Shown: positions 1 through 16,934, counted from the stretch's first letter. The stretch: DNA of 17,719 nucleotides from an uncultured archaeon (GCA_964610875.1 CAZSWP010000059.1:1-17719); one strand, 5' to 3'. Numbers and translations: made by a program. Notes: a model not told the origin generated them from the letters alone.

Positions 1-3000
1 CAAATTGTTGATACGGTAGAGTCTGGTAGTGTATCATATCCTTGAACAGTAATGGTGAGATTCTCACATGCCTCGTTGCCTGCCGTATAATGGATTCTTG
101 TGGAAAGATAGTATACTCCCACCATGGATTCAGATGATTGAAGTATCAGTGTATTCTTTGTATCTCCGTTAGGTTGTGACTCTCCATCATTTTCAACATA
201 GTCCGAGGTCTTCAACAACAATTGATAATCAGAAGAAAACAGGTAGAGGTCAACAACTGTTCCAACATCTTGCCAATCTGCTCGTAAAACAAGGTTTCGC
301 ATAGTTGAATCAGTGACTTCTATTTGAAAGACTCTGGGAGTCCCCCATTCTCCTTCGATTACTCCAGGATTACTAATAGAAGGCCAGAGTCCGCCATTCT
401 CATAAGGTGTAAGTTCTGATCCCCATCCATCACTAATTGTTATGATACTTCCATCTCCATCTGTTATCGAAGCGGGTACCATATATGAGTAAGGAATGTT
501 GTGAGAATATCCAGTAGTAGAGTTTTCTAATAGAATATATCCTTCATGGAGACCCCCTTCTTCGTTACTAGGGACAGTAAGGGTGATGTCAATATTACTT
601 CCTGCACCTGCGGCAAATGATAGAGAGCTATCGATGACCTTCTCCCACAGAGTTATTGTTATTGACACACTTGTTGACTCATCGTAACTAATAGTTAAGG
701 TGGGTGTGTGTTGGAAAATGGTTGAGAGTCCATTGGGGTTAGCTATATGCAACATAAGATTACTAGAATGACCTGTCTGCCAGTTTACTAGATTCAGGTA
801 ATCTCCTTGAGATGTACTTGGATTATAATGATTTAGAACACTATCTACATAGGTGTCCTCCCAATCGTACAAGATAATCTCCGTTGAATGTCCTGTTTCG
901 ATTTGATCCGAATGCACGCTTATGGTTGCATACATAGAATCTAGAAATTCTTGATTATAGGCGCTACCTAAGATGTCACTAATATTGAAGAATCCTGGAC
1001 GTAGTTCTTCTGGTGAGAAAATATAATCATAGTATTGATACGTTACTACCTCATAGGTTAATTGTCTACTTTTTCTATAATGCCAAGCTTCGATAGTGTC
1101 AAAATTTGAAAAGCCTCTGCTAATTCTATCAAACGAATATGGTACGATTGTCATGGAAGTGGTTCCTCCTCTCTCAACAGAACCAAAGTATACACTACTC
1201 ATTCCAAAACTATCCGGTTTACTTGCGCTTGCATAAACATCAAAGGGTTGAGAGCCGGGCATTTGTCCTTCCCATACATCATTGAGTTGGTTCATGTAAT
1301 TTGCTGCACTCATTGTGTTGTGAACATAATAAGCTGCATCTGTTTCAGTTTCAATGTTTGTTATCGCTGTTTCAAGATCTATTATTCCATGACCCTGTTT
1401 GTATGAATTGTAACCAAGATCTTTTGCTGATGAGAGAAGGATTTCTTTCAATATGATTGGGTCATACGTCCATCCTGCCCAGTTCAATTTTATTGCATTA
1501 AGCATGACAGCAGCTGCACCAGCTGCTATTGAACCAGACAAGGTATTTTCCATGTTCCAATAGTAAGTATCACCAAAATCTGTCCATGTATTATGGAAGG
1601 CATTTATTGTTGCAATTCCATAACCTGGTGCTATTATATCCGGTTTTGCCATACCTGTGAACGAAGGACCTCCTGTTAATGATGAAAGTTGGTTCATACT
1701 CTTCTGTTGTGGTGTATATTCTGTGCTGTAGTATTGTGGCTGTAATGTAGAGCCAACTGATACAACGGATGCGGCATCACTGGGTGACACTCCCGACATG
1801 TAATTAGAGGTCTGATCGGATGATGACATCACAAAAAGGGTCCCAGGATATGTGGTTTCTATCAGACCTGGTGTTGACATCAAATCATAGCATAGTGATA
1901 TGAAAGCTAGCGTAGACTGATGGTCGTAATCAAGTGCAGAGTACTTCCATGAGTTCACAACAATGTCTGCTTTATGTTCTTCAGTTGCAGTACTATACTC
2001 CCAGTATCCAGATACATCATTATACTCGAAGCCAGATAGCCAGTACATAGAAGTGAGAGCATCAGATACTGTCCCTCCCTTTGTTGCAATAATCTTGGCT
2101 CCTGGTGCAACTCCTGGAAGACTGTAACCAGTTGCATTCTCGTATATGAGGTGATTATTTGCTGTTCCCTCTGATGATATTGATGACACTGCGAGATTTC
2201 CATAATTCGATTCAGAGGGAAACATTAGTGCAAAAGCCCGCGCGTTACTTGAGATTCCACAGAAGAAATCTTCTGTTATATCTGAAACAATATGGTTACT
2301 ATCATAGACCCAGCAGAACGAACCTAGACCAATGTCATCATATCCATCATCATTCAAATCTGCTGAAAGAATATTGTTTTCATCCACAGTATAGAGATAT
2401 CCTTCATTGAAATCATCTACAAAACTCCAATCCATCATATTCGAGTAAAAATCTCTAGTTACAGGATCTGTTAGGTCTGTGAGTTTATAATATCCCGCTT
2501 CATTCCACATTTTCGTCCAAGCTTTTGTGCCGTTCCAATCGATAATGACTGTGTCTCCACCCATGATGATTGCTGGCGCAAAGACCTTTGCATACTCATC
2601 TCTCCTCTGCTGGAGAACCCATCCTACACGATAGTCCTCTCCGGATGGTGCTGGTAGTTCCCAATCCTTCCACATCTCACTATCAACAAACTCTCTGAAA
2701 CTTGATATTCCCCATGCACTTTCGTACAAGGAAATGAATCCATCAAGAAGAGTCCGTGATGTACCTTCCATATGACATTCTGGGTCCCATCCGGTAACAT
2801 TGAGATAGTAATGCCCTCCCAATTCATATGTCAATGCATTTCCTTCAGAGAGCCACTGATTAGTATCTGCAACATATGATGCATTCGCGTAGAACATTTT
2901 GGTTATTCCGTAACCGGTCAAATCGTATGACATCGGTTGACCAAGTGCATCTGTTGCATGAGCATGTTGCAATTCAGGATGACTGAAATCGACTCCAGTA

Positions 3001-5210
3001 TCATGTAGCCCGATAATCACACCCGTTCCATTATATCCTGATGCATGAACATTTTCAATTCCGAGATCATCAATAACTTGAAACATGTCTGGTCTGATTT
3101 GAACTGGAAGGTTTTCTTGGTGCGTTTCTTTTGGAACGTAGGTATTGGCTGCAATATGAATAACCCCTTCTTCCTGCATGATATCATTTAGTTCATCTTT
3201 AGATGAAATTGAAGCAAAAGTCATTTGAAATGCACCTAAGTTGATAGAACCCTTATAATCATGAATACCCTCAACTGATAGAGGATTTGAATCCAGGTCT
3301 GTTATCAAAATTATACTGATTGCACCATTTCTACTCTTTACAACATCAGGACTAAGCTGATCTGAATTGATATAATCTTGAAGATATTTGTCTAGAATGC
3401 CTCTTTCTGAAATTCCCTCTATTATCGGATTCCATCTAGTAATACCTCCTGAATTATCTTCCTTTGCATTATTTGTCAGTGATTCGTAACTAGATTCAGT
3501 TGATGTTTGAAAATTCGGTGGGGGACCAGTCCTAATTCTACCGTTTGGTAATTTGAAATAGTATGGATTGTAGTTCATGTCCACATATTCTCCCGCTACA
3601 TAATCTGAAATATAGAAAGGTCCTGAGGTGACTAATTCATCAAAGCGAGGATTATACAACTGGGGATGAATTCCATTCAGTATATGCTTAGGTAGGATTC
3701 TTGCTATACAAATATCGTACAAATACCAATACGATGCTTTGTCAAATTCTAAAATGCATTTGTAATCTGTCGGTGCAAAAGCTGAATATAGATGTTCAAG
3801 CCAATCTCCACCCCATCCATGGTAATCCTGATGCTCCAAAAGATAATTGTAGGTGAAAGCAACATCTCGTGCTGATAATGGATAGCCATCAGTCCAAGAT
3901 GCATTATTTATGATGTCAAACGTAAATCGGTAATGCCCAACTGGTACAGATGGATTGTCATCATGGGTTTCTATTTGATATGAATCTGCAAGCCAATTAA
4001 TGAGATTGCCATCAGTATCAGTAAGCAGTAATGGATCATATAAATCATCCAAGACTCGTTGTGTATAAGCGCTACTAGATTGGAGTATATTGAATGTATC
4101 AAGGTCAAGTGGATTACTGATTCGAAAGGTTCCACCAAGGGGTCCGCCTGATGATTCTTTAAGCATTATCTTTTGTTTTGTCCACCATCCGTTGACGCCA
4201 ACCATTGGTGAATTTACATGACCTTCAAAAGTATCTGTCCTATATGCATTATACATTAGGTTGGAATAACAGACCACTCTGGGACATTCATAATTCAGAA
4301 TCTTCTGCATCTCGACTGCTGCATTATATACGTCGTCATAACTTGAGGAATAGAGTAATTGATCAATCCAACTATCATAAGTAGAATTTCTAAAATTCGC
4401 GAAGTTGAAATAGTCTTCATCTGCATAAGCTGACCCATATTCGGTTTCCAAGAACTCCAAGCTAAAATCTCCAAATGAAACACCTAAAAAGACAATGTCA
4501 TAGTCTCCATGGAAATACAGTCTATTTAGATATTCGTAGAAATCAGTAGGTACATATTGTGCATCAATTCCTAGAGCAACTAATGCTTCTTCAGCTATTT
4601 GACCACATTCTATTGCAATGCTGGAAGACTGTGCCACCTCAACAAGAACATCAAAATCCACTCCTGATGGAGTTTCTCTATGACCATCATCATCAATATC
4701 CAGAAAACCTGCCTCATCTAGTATCTGATTTCCTAGAGCTACATTTGATTCGTAGTACGAATATGGCAATGTGCCTTCAATAGAAAAAGGATTTACTGCC
4801 GGAACAACACCATCTTGAGGTTCTGCATCTCCATTCCATACTTGTTCAGCAACTCTCTCCTTGTCGAATGCAAAAGCGAATGCTCTACGAAATGCAGTTT
4901 CATTGAATGGATATTTTGCGGTATTTATGGTGAAATATCCATATCCATTTCGAGGAGATGATTCTACCTGGATATTCTGTGCTTCATTTAATGTAGGAAG
5001 AAAAGTAGGGTCAAGCAAGTTTCCAATCAGATCTATCTCGTCATTAATTAGAGCTAGGACCTGTTGATCATTTTGTGTTATTACTGAATATCGAATGGTA
5101 TCAACATAAGGTCCTGTCCCAGCAATGATGGATGTGCCTGAGACATTGGAAGATGCTGGTATTACTATAATCATTAAGAAGCCAATCAGGCATAATATCC
5201 GCTTATACAC
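1..5210 (-). CDS. Partial (3' end outside window) giant secreted fusion protein: family-5 ABC peptide-binding domain + catalytically degenerate S8 subtilase; paralogue of 5482..13242, >1736 aa
   Basis: Manual translation from GTG at 5210 (preceded by GGTGTGGGAG) gives MYKRILCLIGFLMIIVIPASSNVSGTSIIAGTGPYVDTIRYSVITQNDQQVLALIND, matching GTGPFVDKIYYDIITPVDEQVLALQDN of the 2586-aa ORF. Every segment spot-checked is in the same frame: RNGYGYFTINT, GGTFRISN, IIGLHDTGVDFSHPEL, IAAGAAAVML, and LTITVQGYDTLPDSTVSTI at the window edge. The ORF track reports no stop-terminated ORF in this frame, consistent with a frame open to base 1. Confidence 0.93.
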   Translation of the reverse strand, partial: MYKRILCLIGFLMIIVIPASSNVSGTSIIAGTGPYVDTIRYSVITQNDQQVLALINDEIDLIGNLLDPTFLPTLNEAQNIQVESSPRNGYGYFTINTAKYPFNETAFRRAFAFAFDKERVAEQVWNGDAEPQDGVVPAVNPFSIEGTLPYSYYESNVALGNQILDEAGFLDIDDDGHRETPSGVDFDVLVEVAQSSSIAIECGQIAEEALVALGIDAQYVPTDFYEYLNRLYFHGDYDIVFLGVSFGDFSLEFLETEYGSAYADEDYFNFANFRNSTYDSWIDQLLYSSSYDDVYNAAVEMQKILNYECPRVVCYSNLMYNAYRTDTFEGHVNSPMVGVNGWWTKQKIMLKESSGGPLGGTFRISNPLDLDTFNILQSSSAYTQRVLDDLYDPLLLTDTDGNLINWLADSYQIETHDDNPSVPVGHYRFTFDIINNASWTDGYPLSARDVAFTYNYLLEHQDYHGWGGDWLEHLYSAFAPTDYKCILEFDKASYWYLYDICIARILPKHILNGIHPQLYNPRFDELVTSGPFYISDYVAGEYVDMNYNPYYFKLPNGRIRTGPPPNFQTSTESSYESLTNNAKEDNSGGITRWNPIIEGISERGILDKYLQDYINSDQLSPDVVKSRNGAISIILITDLDSNPLSVEGIHDYKGSINLGAFQMTFASISSKDELNDIMQEEGVIHIAANTYVPKETHQENLPVQIRPDMFQVIDDLGIENVHASGYNGTGVIIGLHDTGVDFSHPELQHAHATDALGQPMSYDLTGYGITKMFYANASYVADTNQWLSEGNALTYELGGHYYLNVTGWDPECHMEGTSRTLLDGFISLYESAWGISSFREFVDSEMWKDWELPAPSGEDYRVGWVLQQRRDEYAKVFAPAIIMGGDTVIIDWNGTKAWTKMWNEAGYYKLTDLTDPVTRDFYSNMMDWSFVDDFNEGYLYTVDENNILSADLNDDGYDDIGLGSFCWVYDSNHIVSDITEDFFCGISSNARAFALMFPSESNYGNLAVSSISSEGTANNHLIYENATGYSLPGVAPGAKIIATKGGTVSDALTSMYWLSGFEYNDVSGYWEYSTATEEHKADIVVNSWKYSALDYDHQSTLAFISLCYDLMSTPGLIETTYPGTLFVMSSSDQTSNYMSGVSPSDAASVVSVGSTLQPQYYSTEYTPQQKSMNQLSSLTGGPSFTGMAKPDIIAPGYGIATINAFHNTWTDFGDTYYWNMENTLSGSIAAGAAAVMLNAIKLNWAGWTYDPIILKEILLSSAKDLGYNSYKQGHGIIDLETAITNIETETDAAYYVHNTMSAANYMNQLNDVWEGQMPGSQPFDVYASASKPDSFGMSSVYFGSVERGGTTSMTIVPYSFDRISRGFSNFDTIEAWHYRKSRQLTYEVVTYQYYDYIFSPEELRPGFFNISDILGSAYNQEFLDSMYATISVHSDQIETGHSTEIILYDWEDTYVDSVLNHYNPSTSQGDYLNLVNWQTGHSSNLMLHIANPNGLSTIFQHTPTLTISYDESTSVSITITLWEKVIDSSLSFAAGAGSNIDITLTVPSNEEGGLHEGYILLENSTTGYSHNIPYSYMVPASITDGDGSIITISDGWGSELTPYENGGLWPSISNPGVIEGEWGTPRVFQIEVTDSTMRNLVLRADWQDVGTVVDLYLFSSDYQLLLKTSDYVENDGESQPNGDTKNTLILQSSESMVGVYYLSTRIHYTAGNEACENLTITVQGYDTLPDSTVSTI
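4508..4554. repeat. 47-bp exact direct repeat, copy 1 (copy 2 at 12534..12580)
   Basis: catggaaatacagtctatttagatattcgtagaaatcagtaggtaca is identical at both places. It extends to 56/57 (4498..4554 vs 12524..12580) and encodes VPTDFYEYLNRLYFH in both paralogues. Confidence 0.95.
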
Positions 5211-5250
5211 AGTGCTCCCACACCTGAACTAGAATAGCTGCAAATCATCC

Positions 5251-5258
5251 TAATAAAA
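5251..5258 (-). promoter_or_regulatory. Possible archaeal TATA box for the downstream paralogue
   Basis: TTTTATTA on the minus strand, 41-48 nt upstream of the GTG at 5210 and preceded by purine-rich GAGAAG. The AT-rich background makes this weak. Confidence 0.3.
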
Positions 5259-5272
5259 CTTCTCAGAAATCT

Positions 5273-5403
5273 GGCTCTGTGTGAAAAGTCGATGGAAAGA
5301 TACTGATTGGAACTATTCACTCCATATCTTGCACGAGTACCAACCTCATTGTTTGTTTTTCTGACTGTGCTCATTCACGGTTGCGGACTTTTCACCCAGC
5401 TCC
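5273..5403. mobile_element. 131-bp MITE (non-autonomous IS derivative) with 18-bp terminal inverted repeats and 9-bp target-site duplication
   Basis: Left end GGCTCTGTGTGAAAAGTC (5273..5290) vs reverse complement of right end GGAGCTGGGTGAAAAGTC (5386..5403): 15/18 identical, inner 10 bp perfect. The direct repeat CAGAAATCT abuts both ends exactly (5264..5272 and 5404..5412). No transposase inside. Confidence 0.85.
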
Positions 5404-5431
5404 CAGAAATCTAATATTACTCAATAGAATT

Positions 5432-5462
5432 GATGAGAGCTGATGTTGATTCAACTCTCATC
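5432..5462 (-). terminator. Stem-loop 20 nt downstream of the stop of the 2586-aa gene (possible terminator or 3' RNA structure)
   Basis: Minus strand GATGAGAGTTGA-atcaaca-TCAGCTCTCATC forms a 12-bp stem with one G-U pair. There is no strong U-tract after it. Confidence 0.4.
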
Positions 5463-5481
5463 TATATCATCAATTTGAGTT

Positions 5482-8400: not shown

Positions 8401-11400
8401 ACATTTCGCAGTTGAATCAATATCGAATGAAGCACTTAATGAACCACTTTCATAAGGCGTCATTTCATTACCAACAGCATTTGCTACGATGTGCTCAGAA
8501 CCATCAATCTCCGCGATGTTCTCTATCACCATATACGAGTATGGAATGTTATGAGAATACCCTGAAGAAATGCTTTCGAGGTGCAAGAACCCTTGATGAA
8601 TTCCATTCTCTGCGTTATTTGGCAAATCTAAGGTTACGTTGATTTTCCCAGCAGAACCAGGGGCTACCAGAATATTGGTATCTAACACTTTCTCCCACAA
8701 TGTCACTGTGATATGAATCGGATTGCCATTACCTAAGGATGCTGAACTATCCGCAACAACTAATGTGGGTGTATAATCAAAGACATTGCTCAAACCGCTA
8801 GGATGTGCAACTCTAATCCATTTGTTGTTACAATGATTATAGTCCCATCCAAGTAACTGCAATAGATCTCCATCTGAATAGGTGGTGTTGTAATAGTTCA
8901 TTGTATCATCATCAATGGTGTCATCCCAATCAAACAGTCTTGCGCTACTAATAAAGTCCATATTTGCCTCATCAAAGTGTACATTTATTGTTGCATAAGG
9001 TGCATTCAACATGTTTTGTATAGCTGTATATCCCAGCTCTTCTGTAAGATTGTAGTATCCGTATCTCTCGACACTATCACCAAATGCTAGGTCTTCATAA
9101 AGGAATGTTGTTGTATTGAATGTATACTGATGGCTCCTACGATAATACCATCCTTCAACGTTATCGAAATTAGTGATATTCCTAATCAAACCATCATAAG
9201 AGAATGTAGATAAGAAGACTTCTGAACTAGAACCTGGGTATACACTACCAAAGTAGATGCTGCTCGTTCCTTGACCAACCGGTTTAGTTCCATCTGAATA
9301 CACCCCAAATGGGTCACAATCTATCATCCAATAATCCCATGCTTGATACATGTCACTCATATAGTTTTCAAAACTATCTTCAGTATGAATGAAATACTGA
9401 TTGCTCTGATTAGATTCAATGAACAAAACGGCACTTTCGACGTCAATTAAGCCATGTCCTTGAGCAAATGCATCCAATCCCATATCTGTCGCAGATGAAA
9501 TTAGAATTTCTTTTAGTGTAACAGGGTTGTATATCCATCCACCCCAATTGGTTTCTATTGCATCCAGGATTAGTGCTGCTGCACCTGCTGCAATTGGGCA
9601 AGCTAGACTTGTTCCTTGCCACCACAGGTAGCTCTCGCCCACACCTGTCCATACATTATGGAACGAATCTGGATTTGCTCCTCTAAATCCTGGTGCCATG
9701 ATATCTGGTTTTGATATTCCTGTATATGATGGACCATTGGATGAAAAGCTAATTTGTTGTCCAATCTCTTGGAATGGTCCAAACGCATGTTCATAATAGT
9801 GTGGAGTCATGGCTGCGCCAACTGCCACAACTGACGCTGCATCACCGGGAGCTCCTCCCGTCATATAATCAGCTCCACTGTTACCCTCAGCGAATAGAAA
9901 CAACGTTCCAGGATAGAATGGATCTACGACGCCTGGTGCAGACATCAAATCCCAGAATAATGTAAGATAGGTTAAGTCCAAGTATCCACCATTGACGTAG
10001 CCCCATGAATTTGAAATTATGTCTGCTTTGTGTCTCTGTCCCTCACTCGTATACTCCCAATACGATGAAGTGGCATTATAGTGGAATCCCGCAGCCCAGA
10101 ATTGAGAACCGATATTGGCACCAGAAGTGAGCCCCTTTGATACAATTAGTTTTGAACCATTAGCCACTCCGGGAAGTTTGTAGAGTGTTCCATTCTCGTA
10201 TACATTATGGTCAACTTCTCCTCGAGAAGCGATTGCGGCTGAACACCAATGACCATGATTTGTATCTGATGGGAACATCAGTGAGAATGCTCTCCCGTTA
10301 CTTGAAACACCACAATAGAGGTAATCGGTCACATCAGTTGCATAGGCTTGACTGTCGTATGACCAACTGAAGGAACCTAGTCCAATATCATCAATGCCAT
10401 TATCATCGAGGTCTGCGGCAAATATTGGATTACCTGTTACGGTATATTCGTGCCCTTCATTGATATCATCAACAAAACTCCAATCCATCAAATCTGTATA
10501 GTAATATTGAATAGTTGAATTATTGATATCTTCTGTTTCGTAATGTATCACATTGTTCCACATTTTGGTCCAGGCTTTTGTGCCATTCCAATCAATTACT
10601 ACCTCTGTTCCGTTTACAATAATTGATGGAGCGAATATCTTCGCATACTCCTCCATTCTTTGTTGAAACACCCAACCAACTCTATAGTCCTGTGTAGTGA
10701 CTGAAGGTAGTTCCCAATCTTTCCACATCTGGTCATAGACAAATTCACTGATGTTTTCTATACCATATGCATTTGCATAAGCATCGATGAAGAAAGATAA
10801 TAGATTACTTTCAGTTGCTTGATTATTGCAAATAGGGTCCCAACTTGTAACATTCAGGTAGACTTTTCCTCCTGACTCATAGGTCAAGAGATTTCCGTCA
10901 TCAAGCCATGTCTGCACATCCGCAACAGCTGTAGCATTAGCTATAACCATCTTCGTGATCCCATAAGATGTTGGATCAAAGGATGTCGGATATCCAAGTC
11001 CATCGATATACATTGCATCCTGTAAGTCTGGCTGACTAAAATCAACTCCTGTGTCATCAACACCAACAACAACACCTGAACCATCATAACCCATTTGATG
11101 TACCGCTGTTACTCCAAGTTCATCATTTATTTTGAACATGTCTAGTCCCGAGTCTAATGGTGGATTTGAATTATCTAATGATTTCGAAAGATAAACATCT
11201 GCTGATAGCTTTATGACATTGTCATTAGCAACTAGAAAATCAAGATCCTTGGATGAATCGAATGATGCCAGTACCATCTGGATTGGTCCCAATTCTGCAG
11301 CCCATTGAATCTCATTGAACCCTTCAATATCAAATGGATTAGCATCTCGTTTCAAAAGGGCGATTATACTGATAGAACCATCCCTTCTTTTCACAACATC

Positions 11401-13242
11401 TTGTGATAATTCCTTGAAATTCAGAAAATCATTGAGATAAGAGTCTAGTTTCTCATCTGCTGACATACCATCTACGATTGTGGTCCATTTTGCTTCTACA
11501 TCTGTGATTGGTTCATCAGGTTCGCTTTCGGGTGATATTGCTGCTGGAACACTCGGAGGAGTTCCCGTACCTTCTGCTTCTGATGGCAGTTTGAAATAGT
11601 ATGGATTTCTAGTTAGTTCGATATAATTTCCTGGAGAGTGGTCTGAAACATAAAATGGTCCGGATGAAACCACTTCGGTATAATCTGGATTGTAGGACGT
11701 AGGATCTTGAAGACTCCATATGTGTTTTGGAAGAATTGGAATCTCAGCAATATGACTGAAATGCCAATATGATTCACTTTTGAATTCAACAATGAAGCGG
11801 TAATCTGTCAGGGAATATGCAGCATACAAATCTGAAGTATATGGTGTGGCTTGAGTTAATCCATGTTCATTGAGATAGTTGAACGTAAAAGCAACATCTC
11901 TCGCACTTAGTGGTCTTCCATCTGTCCATGTTGCATTTTTCACTAAATCAATTGTTATTCTTGTATGCCCAGATGGTACTAGTGCATTATCAGCATGAGT
12001 TTCAATGAGATATGAATCTGCAAGCCAGTTCATGAGATTTCCATCTGGATCTCTTCTAAATAGTGAGTCATATAGTTCATCTAGCACATGTTCTGTATAT
12101 AGACTATTAGTTACTAGAGGATTGAATGTGTCTATATCAAGAGCAAGTGATCTTCTGAGAGTTCCACCAATTGGTCCTCCTGATATGAGACTCACCTTTT
12201 GATTGGTCCACCATCCTTTTACGCCATTTACTACATCGTTTGTGAAACCCTCAAATGTGTCCGTTCGATAGGCGTTGATATATTCATTTTCGTAACAAAT
12301 TACCATTGGACAATCATATATCCATATCTTCTGCATCTCAATTGCAGCATCATAGACATCACTATAACTTGTAGAGTACAACAATTGGTCGCGCCAAGAA
12401 TCATATGTTGCATTTTGCCAATTGGGGAAGTTATAATATGGCTCATCTGCATATTCAGACCAATATTCGTATGCCATCCAATCTACGTCGAAATTGCCAA
12501 ATGAGCTTCCAAGAAATGCCATATCATAGTCTTCATGGAAATACAGTCTATTTAGATATTCGTAGAAATCAGTAGGTACAGCTGTTGCAGAGATATTCAA
12601 AGCAGTAAGAGCTTCTTCAGCCTTCATAGCAACTTCAATTGCTATGCTTGATGACTGGGCCGCTTCAATTACAACATCGAATTCAGTACCATCTGGAGCT
12701 TCTCTAATATTATCTGAATCAACATCACCAAATCCTGCTGCATCAAGAAGTTGGTTTGCTATAGCAATATTTGCATCATAGTATGAGTAAGATAGCTGGC
12801 TTTCAACTGAGAACGGGTTGATTTTTGGTATCAGACTATCACATGGCTCTGAAAAACTATCCCAAATATCCGTTGAAATAGCGTTCTTATCTAATGCAAA
12901 AGAAAATGCTCTTCGAAATGAGGTTATGTTGAAAGGGTATTTTGCCGTGTTTATAGTTATGTATCCATAACCATTTCGTAATGTATTCTCGAGTTCAATA
13001 TTAGATGTCTGATTAAGTTGGTCATAAAACGACGGGTCCACATAATCTCCAATCAAGTCGATATTATTATCCTGTAAAGCTAAGACCTGCTCATCAACTG
13101 GTGTAATGATATCGTAGTATATCTTGTCTACAAATGGTCCTGTCCCACCAGACGTTTCGTATGACTCTGCTGAAGCAGTGAATGTTCCAAGGCACAGAAT
13201 GATTATAGTAGATATAACAATGAATTTCAGATAGTTAGACAT
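5482..13242 (-). CDS. 2586-aa membrane-anchored surface protein: family-5 ABC peptide-binding domain fused to a pyrolysin-like S8 serine protease, with Ig-like stalk and C-terminal TM helix
   Basis: Signal peptide (aa 1-~25). SBP_bac_5 motifs aa ~33-552: PFNITSFRRAFSFALDK, ANQLLDAAG, GGTLRRSL, TWTDGRPLSARDVAFTF, SGPF, RNPYYF. Pro/acidic linker, then prodomain-like aa ~585-701. Subtilase motifs: DDTG (D730), HGHWC (H996), SNSWG, EGNSG (N1121), FSSNGP, KPDIMAPG, GTSLACP (S1212), QGHGLID. Then beta-sandwich domains, a Thr/Ser linker and TM VVISLVITIGSIVIIIYFIV. GAGGGA lies upstream of the ATG. Confidence 0.95.
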   Translation of the reverse strand: MSNYLKFIVISTIIILCLGTFTASAESYETSGGTGPFVDKIYYDIITPVDEQVLALQDNNIDLIGDYVDPSFYDQLNQTSNIELENTLRNGYGYITINTAKYPFNITSFRRAFSFALDKNAISTDIWDSFSEPCDSLIPKINPFSVESQLSYSYYDANIAIANQLLDAAGFGDVDSDNIREAPDGTEFDVVIEAAQSSSIAIEVAMKAEEALTALNISATAVPTDFYEYLNRLYFHEDYDMAFLGSSFGNFDVDWMAYEYWSEYADEPYYNFPNWQNATYDSWRDQLLYSTSYSDVYDAAIEMQKIWIYDCPMVICYENEYINAYRTDTFEGFTNDVVNGVKGWWTNQKVSLISGGPIGGTLRRSLALDIDTFNPLVTNSLYTEHVLDELYDSLFRRDPDGNLMNWLADSYLIETHADNALVPSGHTRITIDLVKNATWTDGRPLSARDVAFTFNYLNEHGLTQATPYTSDLYAAYSLTDYRFIVEFKSESYWHFSHIAEIPILPKHIWSLQDPTSYNPDYTEVVSSGPFYVSDHSPGNYIELTRNPYYFKLPSEAEGTGTPPSVPAAISPESEPDEPITDVEAKWTTIVDGMSADEKLDSYLNDFLNFKELSQDVVKRRDGSISIIALLKRDANPFDIEGFNEIQWAAELGPIQMVLASFDSSKDLDFLVANDNVIKLSADVYLSKSLDNSNPPLDSGLDMFKINDELGVTAVHQMGYDGSGVVVGVDDTGVDFSQPDLQDAMYIDGLGYPTSFDPTSYGITKMVIANATAVADVQTWLDDGNLLTYESGGKVYLNVTSWDPICNNQATESNLLSFFIDAYANAYGIENISEFVYDQMWKDWELPSVTTQDYRVGWVFQQRMEEYAKIFAPSIIVNGTEVVIDWNGTKAWTKMWNNVIHYETEDINNSTIQYYYTDLMDWSFVDDINEGHEYTVTGNPIFAADLDDNGIDDIGLGSFSWSYDSQAYATDVTDYLYCGVSSNGRAFSLMFPSDTNHGHWCSAAIASRGEVDHNVYENGTLYKLPGVANGSKLIVSKGLTSGANIGSQFWAAGFHYNATSSYWEYTSEGQRHKADIISNSWGYVNGGYLDLTYLTLFWDLMSAPGVVDPFYPGTLFLFAEGNSGADYMTGGAPGDAASVVAVGAAMTPHYYEHAFGPFQEIGQQISFSSNGPSYTGISKPDIMAPGFRGANPDSFHNVWTGVGESYLWWQGTSLACPIAAGAAALILDAIETNWGGWIYNPVTLKEILISSATDMGLDAFAQGHGLIDVESAVLFIESNQSNQYFIHTEDSFENYMSDMYQAWDYWMIDCDPFGVYSDGTKPVGQGTSSIYFGSVYPGSSSEVFLSTFSYDGLIRNITNFDNVEGWYYRRSHQYTFNTTTFLYEDLAFGDSVERYGYYNLTEELGYTAIQNMLNAPYATINVHFDEANMDFISSARLFDWDDTIDDDTMNYYNTTYSDGDLLQLLGWDYNHCNNKWIRVAHPSGLSNVFDYTPTLVVADSSASLGNGNPIHITVTLWEKVLDTNILVAPGSAGKINVTLDLPNNAENGIHQGFLHLESISSGYSHNIPYSYMVIENIAEIDGSEHIVANAVGNEMTPYESGSLSASFDIDSTAKCDWGGARTFKVNISNPSAQYLIMDVEWQNEGTVIDVYLRSPTYNLLVSSEDNWDSGYHPEPTGSTKNVIIYDGGGSIEGTYYVEIAVHKFNGSVAFENVSVSLSCYDTLPTGSVSPEWTSNDSPTPQPVTDNDLLTGDHIVFENTWSITQPPSLPEYDITSSSIHFVTGIYEVRTGTYVDPQGYDQWPIPLSETSIYVWEGIKGIRAYDSVRVTLHANGLDPSFEVYEWWDSNLDDIVTLDEIGVSAFISVDDGDADVDEYGQFTADHNMDIAIVVFNWAWAYQSGVDYSLEVDTRSTLKIENTEKNLSYDTYYLGNNGTRDVHLYGYTDTNVEFYVEINNVTFNNYFVPDISLSSPNGGEVWTGTNSINWTASSGNPSDYDPIYDILISNDGGATYELLASNVSTSPYSWDCDPWQYMTNYSIIIRVTDRNMVNQDESDTTFTAGSAATPLVTPFIFGGGDQTFNLGEIGRELKWCISDLHPGTINLYIDDVLDSTWVWLDVVNVTTISLDSLTQGEYNYTIQAIDSDGLVTIQTSIVTVLGDAPIIDHPDDITYEFGNATVYLTWTPLESSPSVYEVYRDSTFVEGGVWDGSSITINVGGLTEGTYEFMCFVNNTDGKSVTDNVTVYVIPDTTAPDIDSPEDVTYSEGSSGNSIIWTPEDFNPSLYTVYLDGSTYVNGLWNSSSESISVDIDGLALGDYNFTLVVEDTYGNTASDIVWVTVVDGTPPAIEGPADYSYNEGTTGHVLKWNFSDSHPNTFTLYRNGSIIQSGTWTGTSSSLEASIDFLQIGRYNFTLVVTDDYDNVASDSVWVDVNDVTNPEVDSPEDITYTEGETGNEIVWTPTDAHPGDYTVTRNGTIVQMGNWASGVGITVDVDDLLPGVYVFNITVRDSSGNIASDHVLVTVEEAGTTSQTSTTDTTSDTSTVDPGEMDTMTVVISLVITIGSIVIIIYFIVKIYRSSQASDWESMMGS
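5680..7041 (-). repeat. Five tandem ~91-aa Ig-like/beta-sandwich protein repeats (stalk)
   Basis: Recurring consensus P-x-I-D-x-P-x-D-x-T-Y-x-E-G...W...D-x-x-P...G-x-W...L-x-x-G-x-Y-N-F-T-L-x-V-x-D-x-x-G-N-x-A-S-D-x-V-x-V-x-V. Units start at PFIF, APII, APDI, PPAI and NPEV. Confidence 0.9.
12534..12580. repeat. 47-bp exact direct repeat, copy 2 (copy 1 at 4508..4554)
   Basis: Identical to 4508..4554. Confidence 0.95.
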
Positions 13243-15743: not shown

Positions 15744-16934
15744 TTATACCTCAAATTCAATGAAGCGTTCAATATGTTTTCTACTGTGTTTCTCACTCAG
15801 TTTTGTTTCCTTATGTTCAATTATTCTCCTCTCTAATCTGTCAAGAGCGAGCGAATAGGTTTCTTCAACACTCCAAGCTTCTGCAGAACTATAATATTGC
15901 GTATGTGCAGTCCTAAATTGAAGTCGGCACTGAATCAACTGATTTCCCTTAGAAATTGAACCGTGTCGTTTAAGATAAACGAATAAATCTCCTACTCCGA
16001 CTACATCCCTGTATCTCTTAGAGAATGACTCAAATTTTCGCTGCATAGCTTTTCGTTCCTCTTCCGTCATCCTAATACCTGGTTTCATAGAAAATTGTAC
16101 TCTTATTCGTCTTGATTCCATGCCTCTCTGAGCAATAGGTTCTAAAAGGTCTCGTTTGGTCACGATTCCAGTTACTCTGTCATCATCAACAACCACAACG
16201 CTTGAGATGTTATATTCTCTCATTTTTCGATGCGCATCGCTGAGAGTTTCTGTTGGTTTAGCAGCTATCACAGGTGAAGACATTACACTACTTACAGGGA
16301 TGTGCAGAAGGTTTGATGTTTCCCCTGCCCTTTCACCATGTCCACCACGATCTAACTGGGAAAAACCCTCTTTCTGTCGCGTCATACTTTTGAAAATGAT
16401 ACTGAATATATCATGAATGCTCACGATACCCACGAGTTTTCCATCATCCTTAACTGGAAGATGTGAAATGCCATAAGTCCTAAACAAATCGAGAATTCTT
16501 GCGACGGTATCATCCCGACGAGCTGAAAGTGGATTCTTTGTCATGATTGATTCAAGAGGAATTGAGTTCCACTCTTCATCGGTACCTTGAGTTATAATAT
16601 CTTGAACTGAGATGAAACCTATATGTTTCTCTCCAGAAAATACTGGCAAAATCGGTGTTTGTACTTCAATCATCAGTCTTGCTGCTTCAGCAAGGGTTTC
16701 TGTATGTTGAATAGATGGAAGAGTTATCATTTGTTTCTCCACCTTGCTGGATGTTGGATCCACTCTTGATTTTCTTAATCTCCTTCTAATAATTACTCCT
16801 TGATAGTTTCCCTTTGAATCCTCTACAATTAGTGCTGGAGGTTCTATTTTCTTCAGTCTACTAATTGCCGCAGAAAGTTGTTCATTCTTGTCTATTTTTT
16901 CATATTCACTAAGTGTAATCTCACTAATGCGCAT
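15744..16934 (-). CDS. Four-CBS-domain protein with C-terminal HPF/RaiA (S30AE)-like domain; probable archaeal ribosome hibernation factor
   Basis: aa 1-~268 holds four CBS repeats (e.g. IMTKNP...GISHLPVKDDGKLVGIVSIHD; VMSSPV...ISSVVVVDDDRVTGIVTKRDLL). aa 277-376 follows the HPF beta-alpha-beta-beta-beta-alpha pattern, ending SAEAWSVEETYSLALDRLERRIIEHKE. Confidence 0.8.
   Translation of the reverse strand: MRISEITLSEYEKIDKNEQLSAAISRLKKIEPPALIVEDSKGNYQGVIIRRRLRKSRVDPTSSKVEKQMITLPSIQHTETLAEAARLMIEVQTPILPVFSGEKHIGFISVQDIITQGTDEEWNSIPLESIMTKNPLSARRDDTVARILDLFRTYGISHLPVKDDGKLVGIVSIHDIFSIIFKSMTRQKEGFSQLDRGGHGERAGETSNLLHIPVSSVMSSPVIAAKPTETLSDAHRKMREYNISSVVVVDDDRVTGIVTKRDLLEPIAQRGMESRRIRVQFSMKPGIRMTEEERKAMQRKFESFSKRYRDVVGVGDLFVYLKRHGSISKGNQLIQCRLQFRTAHTQYYSSAEAWSVEETYSLALDRLERRIIEHKETKLSEKHSRKHIERFIEFEV

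Follow-up and report, generated by a model that had tools for sequence, protein, structure and literature searches.

A putative pseudo-subtilase encoded beside an active-looking paralogue in a Thorarchaeota-like metagenome-assembled genome

Introduction

To our knowledge, the Csp proteins of Clostridioides difficile are the only well-studied case of a subtilase pseudo-enzyme found beside an active paralogue. There, the pseudoproteases CspA and CspC accompany the active CspB, the residues at their catalytic His and Ser positions have been replaced (Thr170 and Gly485 in CspC, Gln757 and Ala1064 in CspA), and the prodomain of CspC stays uncleaved (PMC7200643). Subtilases with large inserts and C-terminal extensions form the pyrolysin group, represented by pyrolysin, the STABLE protease, TPP II, KP-43, and Tk-SP (Siezen and Leunissen 1997, summarized in PMC9549277). 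Here, we describe a stretch of DNA of 17,719 nucleotides from an uncultured archaeon (GCA_964610875.1 CAZSWP010000059.1:1-17719), called the window below, which makes up the entire 17.7-kb contig C59 of a metagenome-assembled genome of 3.75 Mb; the completeness of this genome is 95%, and its contamination is estimated at 5.8%. Most of the window is taken up by two long minus-strand frames, P0001 and P0002, and the closest named proteins are all from “Candidatus Thorarchaeota” (Asgard archaea). They are collinear across all of P0001, with 48% identity over 1736 amino acids and 28 gap positions (BLASTP). P0002 looks like an active protease, and P0001, judging from its sequence, is likely to be a pseudo-subtilase, catalytically disabled and retained as a folded binding or scaffold protein.

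Catalytic residues of P0001

P0001 (3..5210) comprises 1736 codons, from a GTG start followed by a signal-peptide-like N terminus to the end of the contig, where its 3′ side is open, and its Peptidase_S8 domain (PF00082, 60.2 bits versus a cutoff of 21.8) covers amino acids 728 to 1275 (1386..3029). The paralogue P0002 (5482..13242) has 2586 amino acids, with an SBP_bac_5 domain, an S8 domain, PKD-like repeats, and a C-terminal membrane helix. Its S8 domain (9373..11142) carries the full catalytic set, i.e., Asp730 (11053..11055), His996 (10255..10257), Asn1121 (9880..9882), and Ser1212 (9607..9609); all of these features, like those of P0001 given below, are on the minus strand. From the Asp-His-Ser triad of active S8 peptidases, P0001 has kept Asp737 only (GAT, 3000..3002, within HDTG versus DDTG in P0002). 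Tyr1003 is found at the position of the catalytic His (TAT versus CAT in P0002, 2202..2204, NYGN versus NHGH). The oxyanion-hole motif G-N-x-G has become S-D-Q-T (Ser1131, Asp1132, and Thr1134; 1809..1820, SSSDQT versus AEGNSG), with Asp1132 (GAT, 1815..1817) in place of the Asn, and the motif of the nucleophile, G-T-S-x-x-x-P, has become E-N-T-L-S-G-S (Glu1221, Asn1222, Thr1223, and Ser1227; 1530..1550, versus GTSLACP), with Thr1223 (ACC, 1542..1544) in place of the Ser. Each motif has, therefore, lost neighbors too: for the Asn, the preceding Gly and the Gly at the second position after it; for the Ser, the preceding Gly and Thr and the Pro at the fourth position after it. The Gly of SNSWG, presumably equivalent by motif to Gly127 of subtilisin BPN′, is replaced by Lys1089 (AAG, 1944..1946, VNSWK). 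Among the replacements checked by codon, each differs from the P0002 codon by one nucleotide, except Lys1089, Asn1222, and Thr1223.

A former reading of this DNA, made from the sequence only, had proposed that the downstream paralogue is a pseudoprotease. All the motif pairs and codon coordinates that it gave agreed with the translations, the BLASTP alignment, and a codon check. The flanking motifs that it had considered preserved (LMFPS, YPGTLF, DAASVV, KPDI[IM]APG, and IAAGAAA) are indeed common to both copies in the BLASTP alignment, and so is the spacing of 266 residues between the Asp and the His position. In the alignments examined, no His or Ser unique to P0001 that could provide an alternative catalytic pair falls near the catalytic columns. 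P0001 cannot use the Asp-His-Ser mechanism, and since the His, the oxyanion Asn, the Ser, and the surrounding motif residues have been lost, a serine protease function has to be discarded as far as the sequence goes. P0001 is, thus, a pseudoprotease in the sense that applies to CspA and CspC, a homologue of an active protease in which catalytic residues have been replaced.

Frame maintenance and regional release of constraint

The patterns of substitution indicate that P0001 is a coding gene kept by purifying selection and not a decaying pseudogene. About 4.5% of random substitutions in P0001 create a stop codon, and in a neutral drift simulation, the probability that the 5208-nt frame is still open falls below 0.05 beyond about 0.013 substitutions per site. 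Neutral drift over those 0.013 substitutions per site would be expected to change ~0.3 of the 11 residues that are invariant in the catalytic motifs, and 7 have actually been replaced, which implies that the catalytic loss is old and that the frame has been kept open since. No frameshifts were found over the 5.2 kb of P0001.

There are 42 alignment columns that are invariant in the other homologues, and P0001 has changed at 9 of them, P0002 at 1. The replacements of P0001 affect 7 of the 11 invariant residues in catalytic motifs versus 2 of the 31 elsewhere (one-sided Fisher test, P = 3.6e-4); the motif windows were derived from PROSITE-style subtilase patterns and set after inspection of the data, so that this value is indicative only. 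A similar concentration emerged at the regional level, where we counted the changes unique to P0001 or to P0002 by the Tajima relative-rate method with three outgroups. In the catalytic lobe, which runs from the His motif to the end of the S8 domain (amino acids 986 to 1280, 1371..2255), there were 60 changes in P0001 versus 19 in P0002 (P = 4e-6), with the same outcome for the three outgroups. The insert of ~215 amino acids between the Asp and His motifs (amino acids 771 to 985, 2256..2900; 57% identical to P0002) gave 24 versus 31 (P = 0.35), and the SBP_bac_5 binding domain (amino acids 33 to 560, 3531..5114; 59% identical to P0002) gave 73 versus 51 (P = 0.048). The other domains were borderline at most (amino acids 1501 to 1736 reached P = 0.04 with one of the three outgroups). 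Maximum-likelihood (ML) branch lengths told the same story, with a P0001/P0002 ratio of 4.75 in the catalytic lobe (0.87 versus 0.18), 0.93 in the insert, 1.7 in the binding domain, and a range of 1.5 to 2.4 outside the lobe and the insert. A strong rate excess in the disabled copy is, thus, found in the catalytic lobe only. The lobe ratio stays at 4.73 when the motif columns are removed, which indicates that the whole substrate-facing half of the domain has lost constraint, beyond the triad itself.

The sequence-only reading had already noticed that the substitutions concentrate at the active site, and both the motif counts and the lobe counts bear this out. Its more general claim, that the fold was kept and that there was no random decay, is backed by the uniqueness of the replacements, their concentration, the long open frame, and the predicted fold (see below). 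It had gone further and suggested selection to keep the fold while losing or changing catalysis. Selection for the loss is not required by the data, since 7 of 11 is close to what the lobe average of 0.87 changes per site predicts, and a simple release of the catalytic constraint suffices.

Relatives of P0001 and origin by duplication

The loss of the catalytic residues sets P0001 apart from its relatives. When the 32 nearest homologues are aligned, the other 31 all show D, H, N, and S wherever the columns are covered. Two database searches retrieved 242 wider homologues, and besides P0001 only five of them, all more distant, depart from these residues in at least one column. We also checked about 40 genomic copies from 30 related genomes, second copies included. 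One close relative (L011) has a putative Asp at the Asn column of the alignment, and its near-identical sister has Asn; the remaining close relatives keep all four residues.

In the tree, P0001 and P0002 are sisters, with support of 98 to 99 in the Shimodaira-Hasegawa-like approximate likelihood-ratio test, and the next branch is a copy from a different genus (genome G006). The disabled copy derives, therefore, from a tandem duplication within this lineage. A third S8 paralogue of the same genome, located on contig C21, has the canonical catalytic residues. No orthologue of P0001 was found, and nothing closer than the neighboring gene, in a word-indexed search of 5.8 billion proteins; the best match by HMMER among 1.84 billion representatives of 15 billion proteins was P0002 itself (52%), and nothing closer than P0002 was found in 41 genomes, including that of the window.

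A few observations on more distant copies deserve to be mentioned. By alignment reading, P0153, a distant S8 homologue, is a candidate for His to Gln and Ser to Ala replacements; the distant copy L034 (G040:C4) putatively has Asp to Gly, Asn to Asp, and Ser to Ala; and L067, also distant, putatively deviates at the Asn. The nearest relative from another genus (L068, G006:C47:1-9000; L008) is split into two frames just past the Asp motif, with an 836-amino-acid frame followed by an open frame of 4666 amino acids, which may be due to a frameshift or a misassembly, or else the gene is very large.

Predicted structure of the S8 domain

The S8 domain of P0001 very probably folds as an intact subtilisin, according to the models. 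AlphaFold gave a predicted local distance difference test (pLDDT) value of 83.0 and a predicted template modeling (pTM) score of 0.87 for the disabled domain, versus 84.7 and 0.90 for the active one of P0002, and the secondary structure is nearly identical in the two models. Superposition of the disabled model on subtilisin BPN′ (1lw6_E), a check that the sequence-only reading had proposed, gave a Z score of 31.9 and a root mean square deviation of 2.2 Å over 271 of 281 residues, and the top Foldseek matches were all subtilases. By sequence, the best matches among solved structures were SubHal, KP-43, Tk-SP, and TPP II. The structure searches with the disabled model matched the subtilisin core only and nothing for the insert, for which a language-model look-alike search returned scores of <0.9 only, to unnamed clusters. 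We considered whether the low-confidence loops next to the oxyanion loop betray disorder specific to the disabled copy and rejected this, because the active copy has them too.

The substrate groove had been described as blocked on the basis of the Gly to Lys replacement, and this part of the sequence-only reading finds no support in the form given. The column of Lys1089 is 90% Gly, and it is Ser or Asn in P0005, P0028, and P0003, all of them with intact triads.

Domain architecture and probable C terminus

The N-terminal SBP_bac_5 domain of P0001 is a strong match (PF00496, 163.4 bits versus a cutoff of 32.4), made up of two stretches in permuted order. The permutation is common to both copies, with amino acids 33 to 247 matching profile positions 145 to 349; in P0002 the match, also permuted, is located at 11563-13146 on the minus strand. 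Between this domain and S8, amino acids 601 to 715 (3066..3410, 37% identical to P0002) had no Pfam match, and we call them propeptide-like because of their position, relatives without the binding domain having ~160 amino acids ahead of S8. The domains after S8 (amino acids 1281 to 1736, 3..1370) are 36 to 40% identical to P0002 and probably beta-rich. The large intradomain insert and the >450 amino acids after the S8 domain are both features of the pyrolysin type.

The fusion of SBP_bac_5 and S8 was found in a few relatives only (P0002, P0003, P0005, P0110, and P0112; also P0155). They are not monophyletic in the S8 tree, where P0005 groups with copies without the binding domain, and the scattered distribution suggests repeated gain or loss of that domain. 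Within the binding domain, a 47-nt tract is identical in both paralogues (4508-4554 and 12534-12580), the next longest matches being 19 nt, which is compatible with a short gene-conversion tract.

The rest of P0001 may be located at the end of another contig, C22, where there is a 523-codon frame in the right orientation and open at its 5′ side (G000:C22:59413-60982; L070:1312-2883, minus strand). The encoded fragment is 51% identical to amino acids 1788 to 2245 of P0002 and has a membrane helix at its end, followed by a short tail. There are only three S8 copies of this type in the genome and the one on C21 has its own C terminus, so that the C22 fragment is very probably the rest of P0001. 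If this assignment is right, the disabled copy would have ~2300 amino acids and would be anchored in the membrane like its neighbor.

Intergenic region and a further gene of the window

P0002 and P0001 are separated by a spacer of 271 bp (5211..5481). A hairpin (5429-5465), consisting of a 15-nt inverted repeat with 87% complementarity and a 7-nt loop, starts 17 nt past the stop codon of P0002 and may be terminator-like or regulatory, ahead of the disabled copy. A repeat-flanked element follows at about 5261-5412, with 14-nt inverted arms and a 12-nt direct repeat. No second copy of it was found in the genome assembly at an E value of ≤0.001, and its labeling as a miniature inverted-repeat transposable element (MITE) would be based on shape alone. 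Closer to P0001, there is an A/T-rich, TATA-like box (5251-5258) and then AGGTG ahead of the GTG start; we infer that the box could be the promoter of P0001. On the other side of P0002, the window encodes a CBS-domain protein (15747-16934, minus strand, 137.7 bits) with a weak C-terminal match to Ribosomal_S30AE (ribosome hibernation factor; 21.7 bits, cutoff 23.7).

A separate S8 family with the same two replacements

The Asn to Asp and Ser to Thr replacements were also found in a separate S8 protein of ~1460 amino acids, P0098 (G000:C2:75804-80171, L042; orthologues L035 to L052), which loses two catalytic residues among the 242 wider homologues. The family has no insert between Asp and His, a weak match to a GIFT domain, and a C-terminal membrane helix, and it is single copy in 15 of the 15 same-family genomes searched, as well as in some beyond. 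Every orthologue examined has the oxyanion motif AGDDGP and the Ser motif ADTT or ADST. Most orthologues still have the His (three have Pro or Arg instead), the Asp is kept except for one with Gly, and the more distant homologues are canonical. From these alignments, the family would be either a conserved pseudo-subtilase or a Thr-variant subtilase. Being an ancient and conserved variant, it may merit attention more than the singleton P0001.

Proposed function and alternative explanations

The scenario that we favor starts with a giant membrane-anchored surface protein, in which a peptide-binding domain is combined with a pyrolysin-type protease, and which would have been copied by tandem duplication within this lineage. 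The downstream copy would then have lost its general base (His to Tyr), its oxyanion Asn (to Asp), and its nucleophile (Ser to Thr), together with their motif neighbors. After this old loss, purifying selection would have persisted, with constraint released on the catalytic lobe only and the binding domain, the insert, and the later domains still conserved. A protein of this kind could not cut off its own propeptide-like segment, which would probably stay in the cleft, as in CspC, if it is not processed in trans by the active paralogue; this would explain the loss of constraint across the whole lobe. The peptide-binding domain would also stay covalently attached. On the cell surface, P0001 would most likely act as a noncatalytic partner, for binding or as a scaffold, analogous to CspA and CspC beside CspB, and it may possibly associate with its active neighbor through the conserved insert. 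The insert is equally conserved in both copies, which suggests a common interaction surface and favors such a partner over an unrelated new function. A more ambitious version, which strikes us as improbable, is that the two copies make up one surface machine, to which the disabled subunit is joined via the insert while holding substrates or products with its binding domain. If this were true, extracellular proteolysis would be coupled to peptide capture in an Asgard archaeon, and the recurring pair of Asn to Asp and Ser to Thr replacements would point to a preferred route from subtilase to binding module.

Some points weigh against P0001 being a retained binding or scaffold protein. The pairwise ratio of nonsynonymous to synonymous substitution rates (dN/dS) between P0001 and P0002 is about 0.2, and with dS saturated (1.7 to 2.5, or undefined), this ratio alone cannot exclude neutrality on the P0001 branch. 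Both AlphaFold models were built from the same 26-sequence alignment, and their likeness is, thus, partly built in. With no orthologue in the databases searched, the disabled state, the conservation of which in orthologues the sequence-only reading had proposed to check, is known across species from one gene in one metagenome-assembled genome only, with the completeness and contamination given above, and the reach of the case is limited accordingly. As to the C terminus, C59 and C22 have no sequence overlap and their direct abutment gives a TGA, so that about 70 codons, by comparison with P0002, would be missing from the assembly and the join is a probable one.

As an alternative, P0001 might have taken up a function apart from its neighbor, in sensing like CspC, which is itself a sensor (PMC7200643), or in adhesion, the tandem arrangement being a relic of the duplication. 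The conserved binding domain and later domains fit such a receptor or adhesin, and P0001 may be served by a TATA-like box and a ribosome-binding site of its own. The rate of the insert, the same as in the active copy, is consistent with a common interaction surface instead but does not prove it; we hold an independent role to be rather unlikely, although nothing in the present data distinguishes it from the partner model. A young pseudogene, i.e., a protease active until recently and now decaying, with its first stop codon still to come, seems far less plausible. In its favor, P0001 stands alone, with no orthologues, most of its domains have ML branches somewhat longer than in P0002, and expression might be disturbed by the repeat-flanked element, located 54 bp ahead of the start codon. 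However, its 1736 open codons (plus 523 if the C22 fragment belongs) leave room for only ~0.013 neutral substitutions per site, in which ~0.3 and not 7 of the 11 motif residues should have changed. Furthermore, the relative-rate tests outside the lobe are nonsignificant or borderline, the insert shows no excess, and the 5.2 kb are free of frameshifts, all of which makes recent decay very unlikely.

There is similarly little to expect from the possibility that P0001 is a noncanonical enzyme with Thr1223 as nucleophile and another base. Sedolisins (S53) have an Asp at the oxyanion position, to which Asp1132 would be a parallel. Asp737 is kept, Ser to Thr and Asn to Asp are the most conservative replacements possible, and the same two are fixed in the separate S8 family across the Thorarchaeota-like genomes searched. 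However, the His has become a Tyr, no unique His or Glu is found nearby in the alignment (the nearest His, His1019, has a counterpart in P0002), and the nucleophile position has lost its preceding Gly and Thr as well as the Pro that follows. Besides, an enzyme with a changed chemistry should keep a constrained cleft, and the lobe has been released even without the motif columns (4.73). Finally, an assembly chimera, a contaminating contig, or sequencing errors could be invoked, given that this is a metagenomic bin with 5.8% estimated contamination and that the gene is cut by the contig end. However, a single contig carries both copies, neither has a closer relative than the other, their nearest other relatives are all Thorarchaeota-type proteins, and they differ at about half of their residues, so that the catalytic changes cannot be read errors. 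We give an artifact hardly any credit. The likely pseudo-subtilase nature of P0001 has a practical side too, as automatic pipelines would call it “S8 family serine peptidase,” the name that its close relatives bear in public records.

Comparison with known systems

A pseudo-subtilase next to an active paralogue is already known from the Csp system, and P0001 resembles it in several respects. In both cases, paralogues with a subtilisin fold adjoin an active copy (or are fused with it), and the Asp is kept while the His and the Ser are replaced. The Csp proteins have been retained as folded proteins with noncatalytic roles, and such a role for P0001 would be deduced from its sequence. On the other hand, the Csp proteins are found in spores of Firmicutes, are small and soluble, and have a disabled state that is conserved across a whole bacterial family, while P0001 is a giant Asgard surface protein with a peptide-binding domain, a 215-amino-acid insert, and a probable membrane anchor, found in one genome. 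P0001 also falls outside the Csp clade, its nearest relatives being Thorarchaeota proteins.

By its sequence features, the family of P0001 and P0002 is of the pyrolysin type. P0001 has the S8A domain of that group, with a long Asp-to-His insert and with long C-terminal extensions, and one homologue (P0050) is named “Pyrolysin precursor” in its public record. It differs in that the pyrolysin-group enzymes are active, whereas P0001 is without three of the four catalytic residues, and in its N-terminal fusion to SBP_bac_5, which is restricted to the handful of relatives mentioned above. A literature search for Thorarchaeota and subtilisin gave nothing relevant.

Pseudo-enzymes adjoining active paralogues represent a recurring route to regulators and binding subunits, and the same route seems to have been taken here in an Asgard archaeon, within an unusual architecture that combines peptide binding and proteolysis. 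New with respect to Csp are the Asgard host, this architecture, and a clean separation of constraint by domain: after the catalytic loss, it was released in the catalytic lobe and retained in the insert, in the binding domain, and in the later domains.

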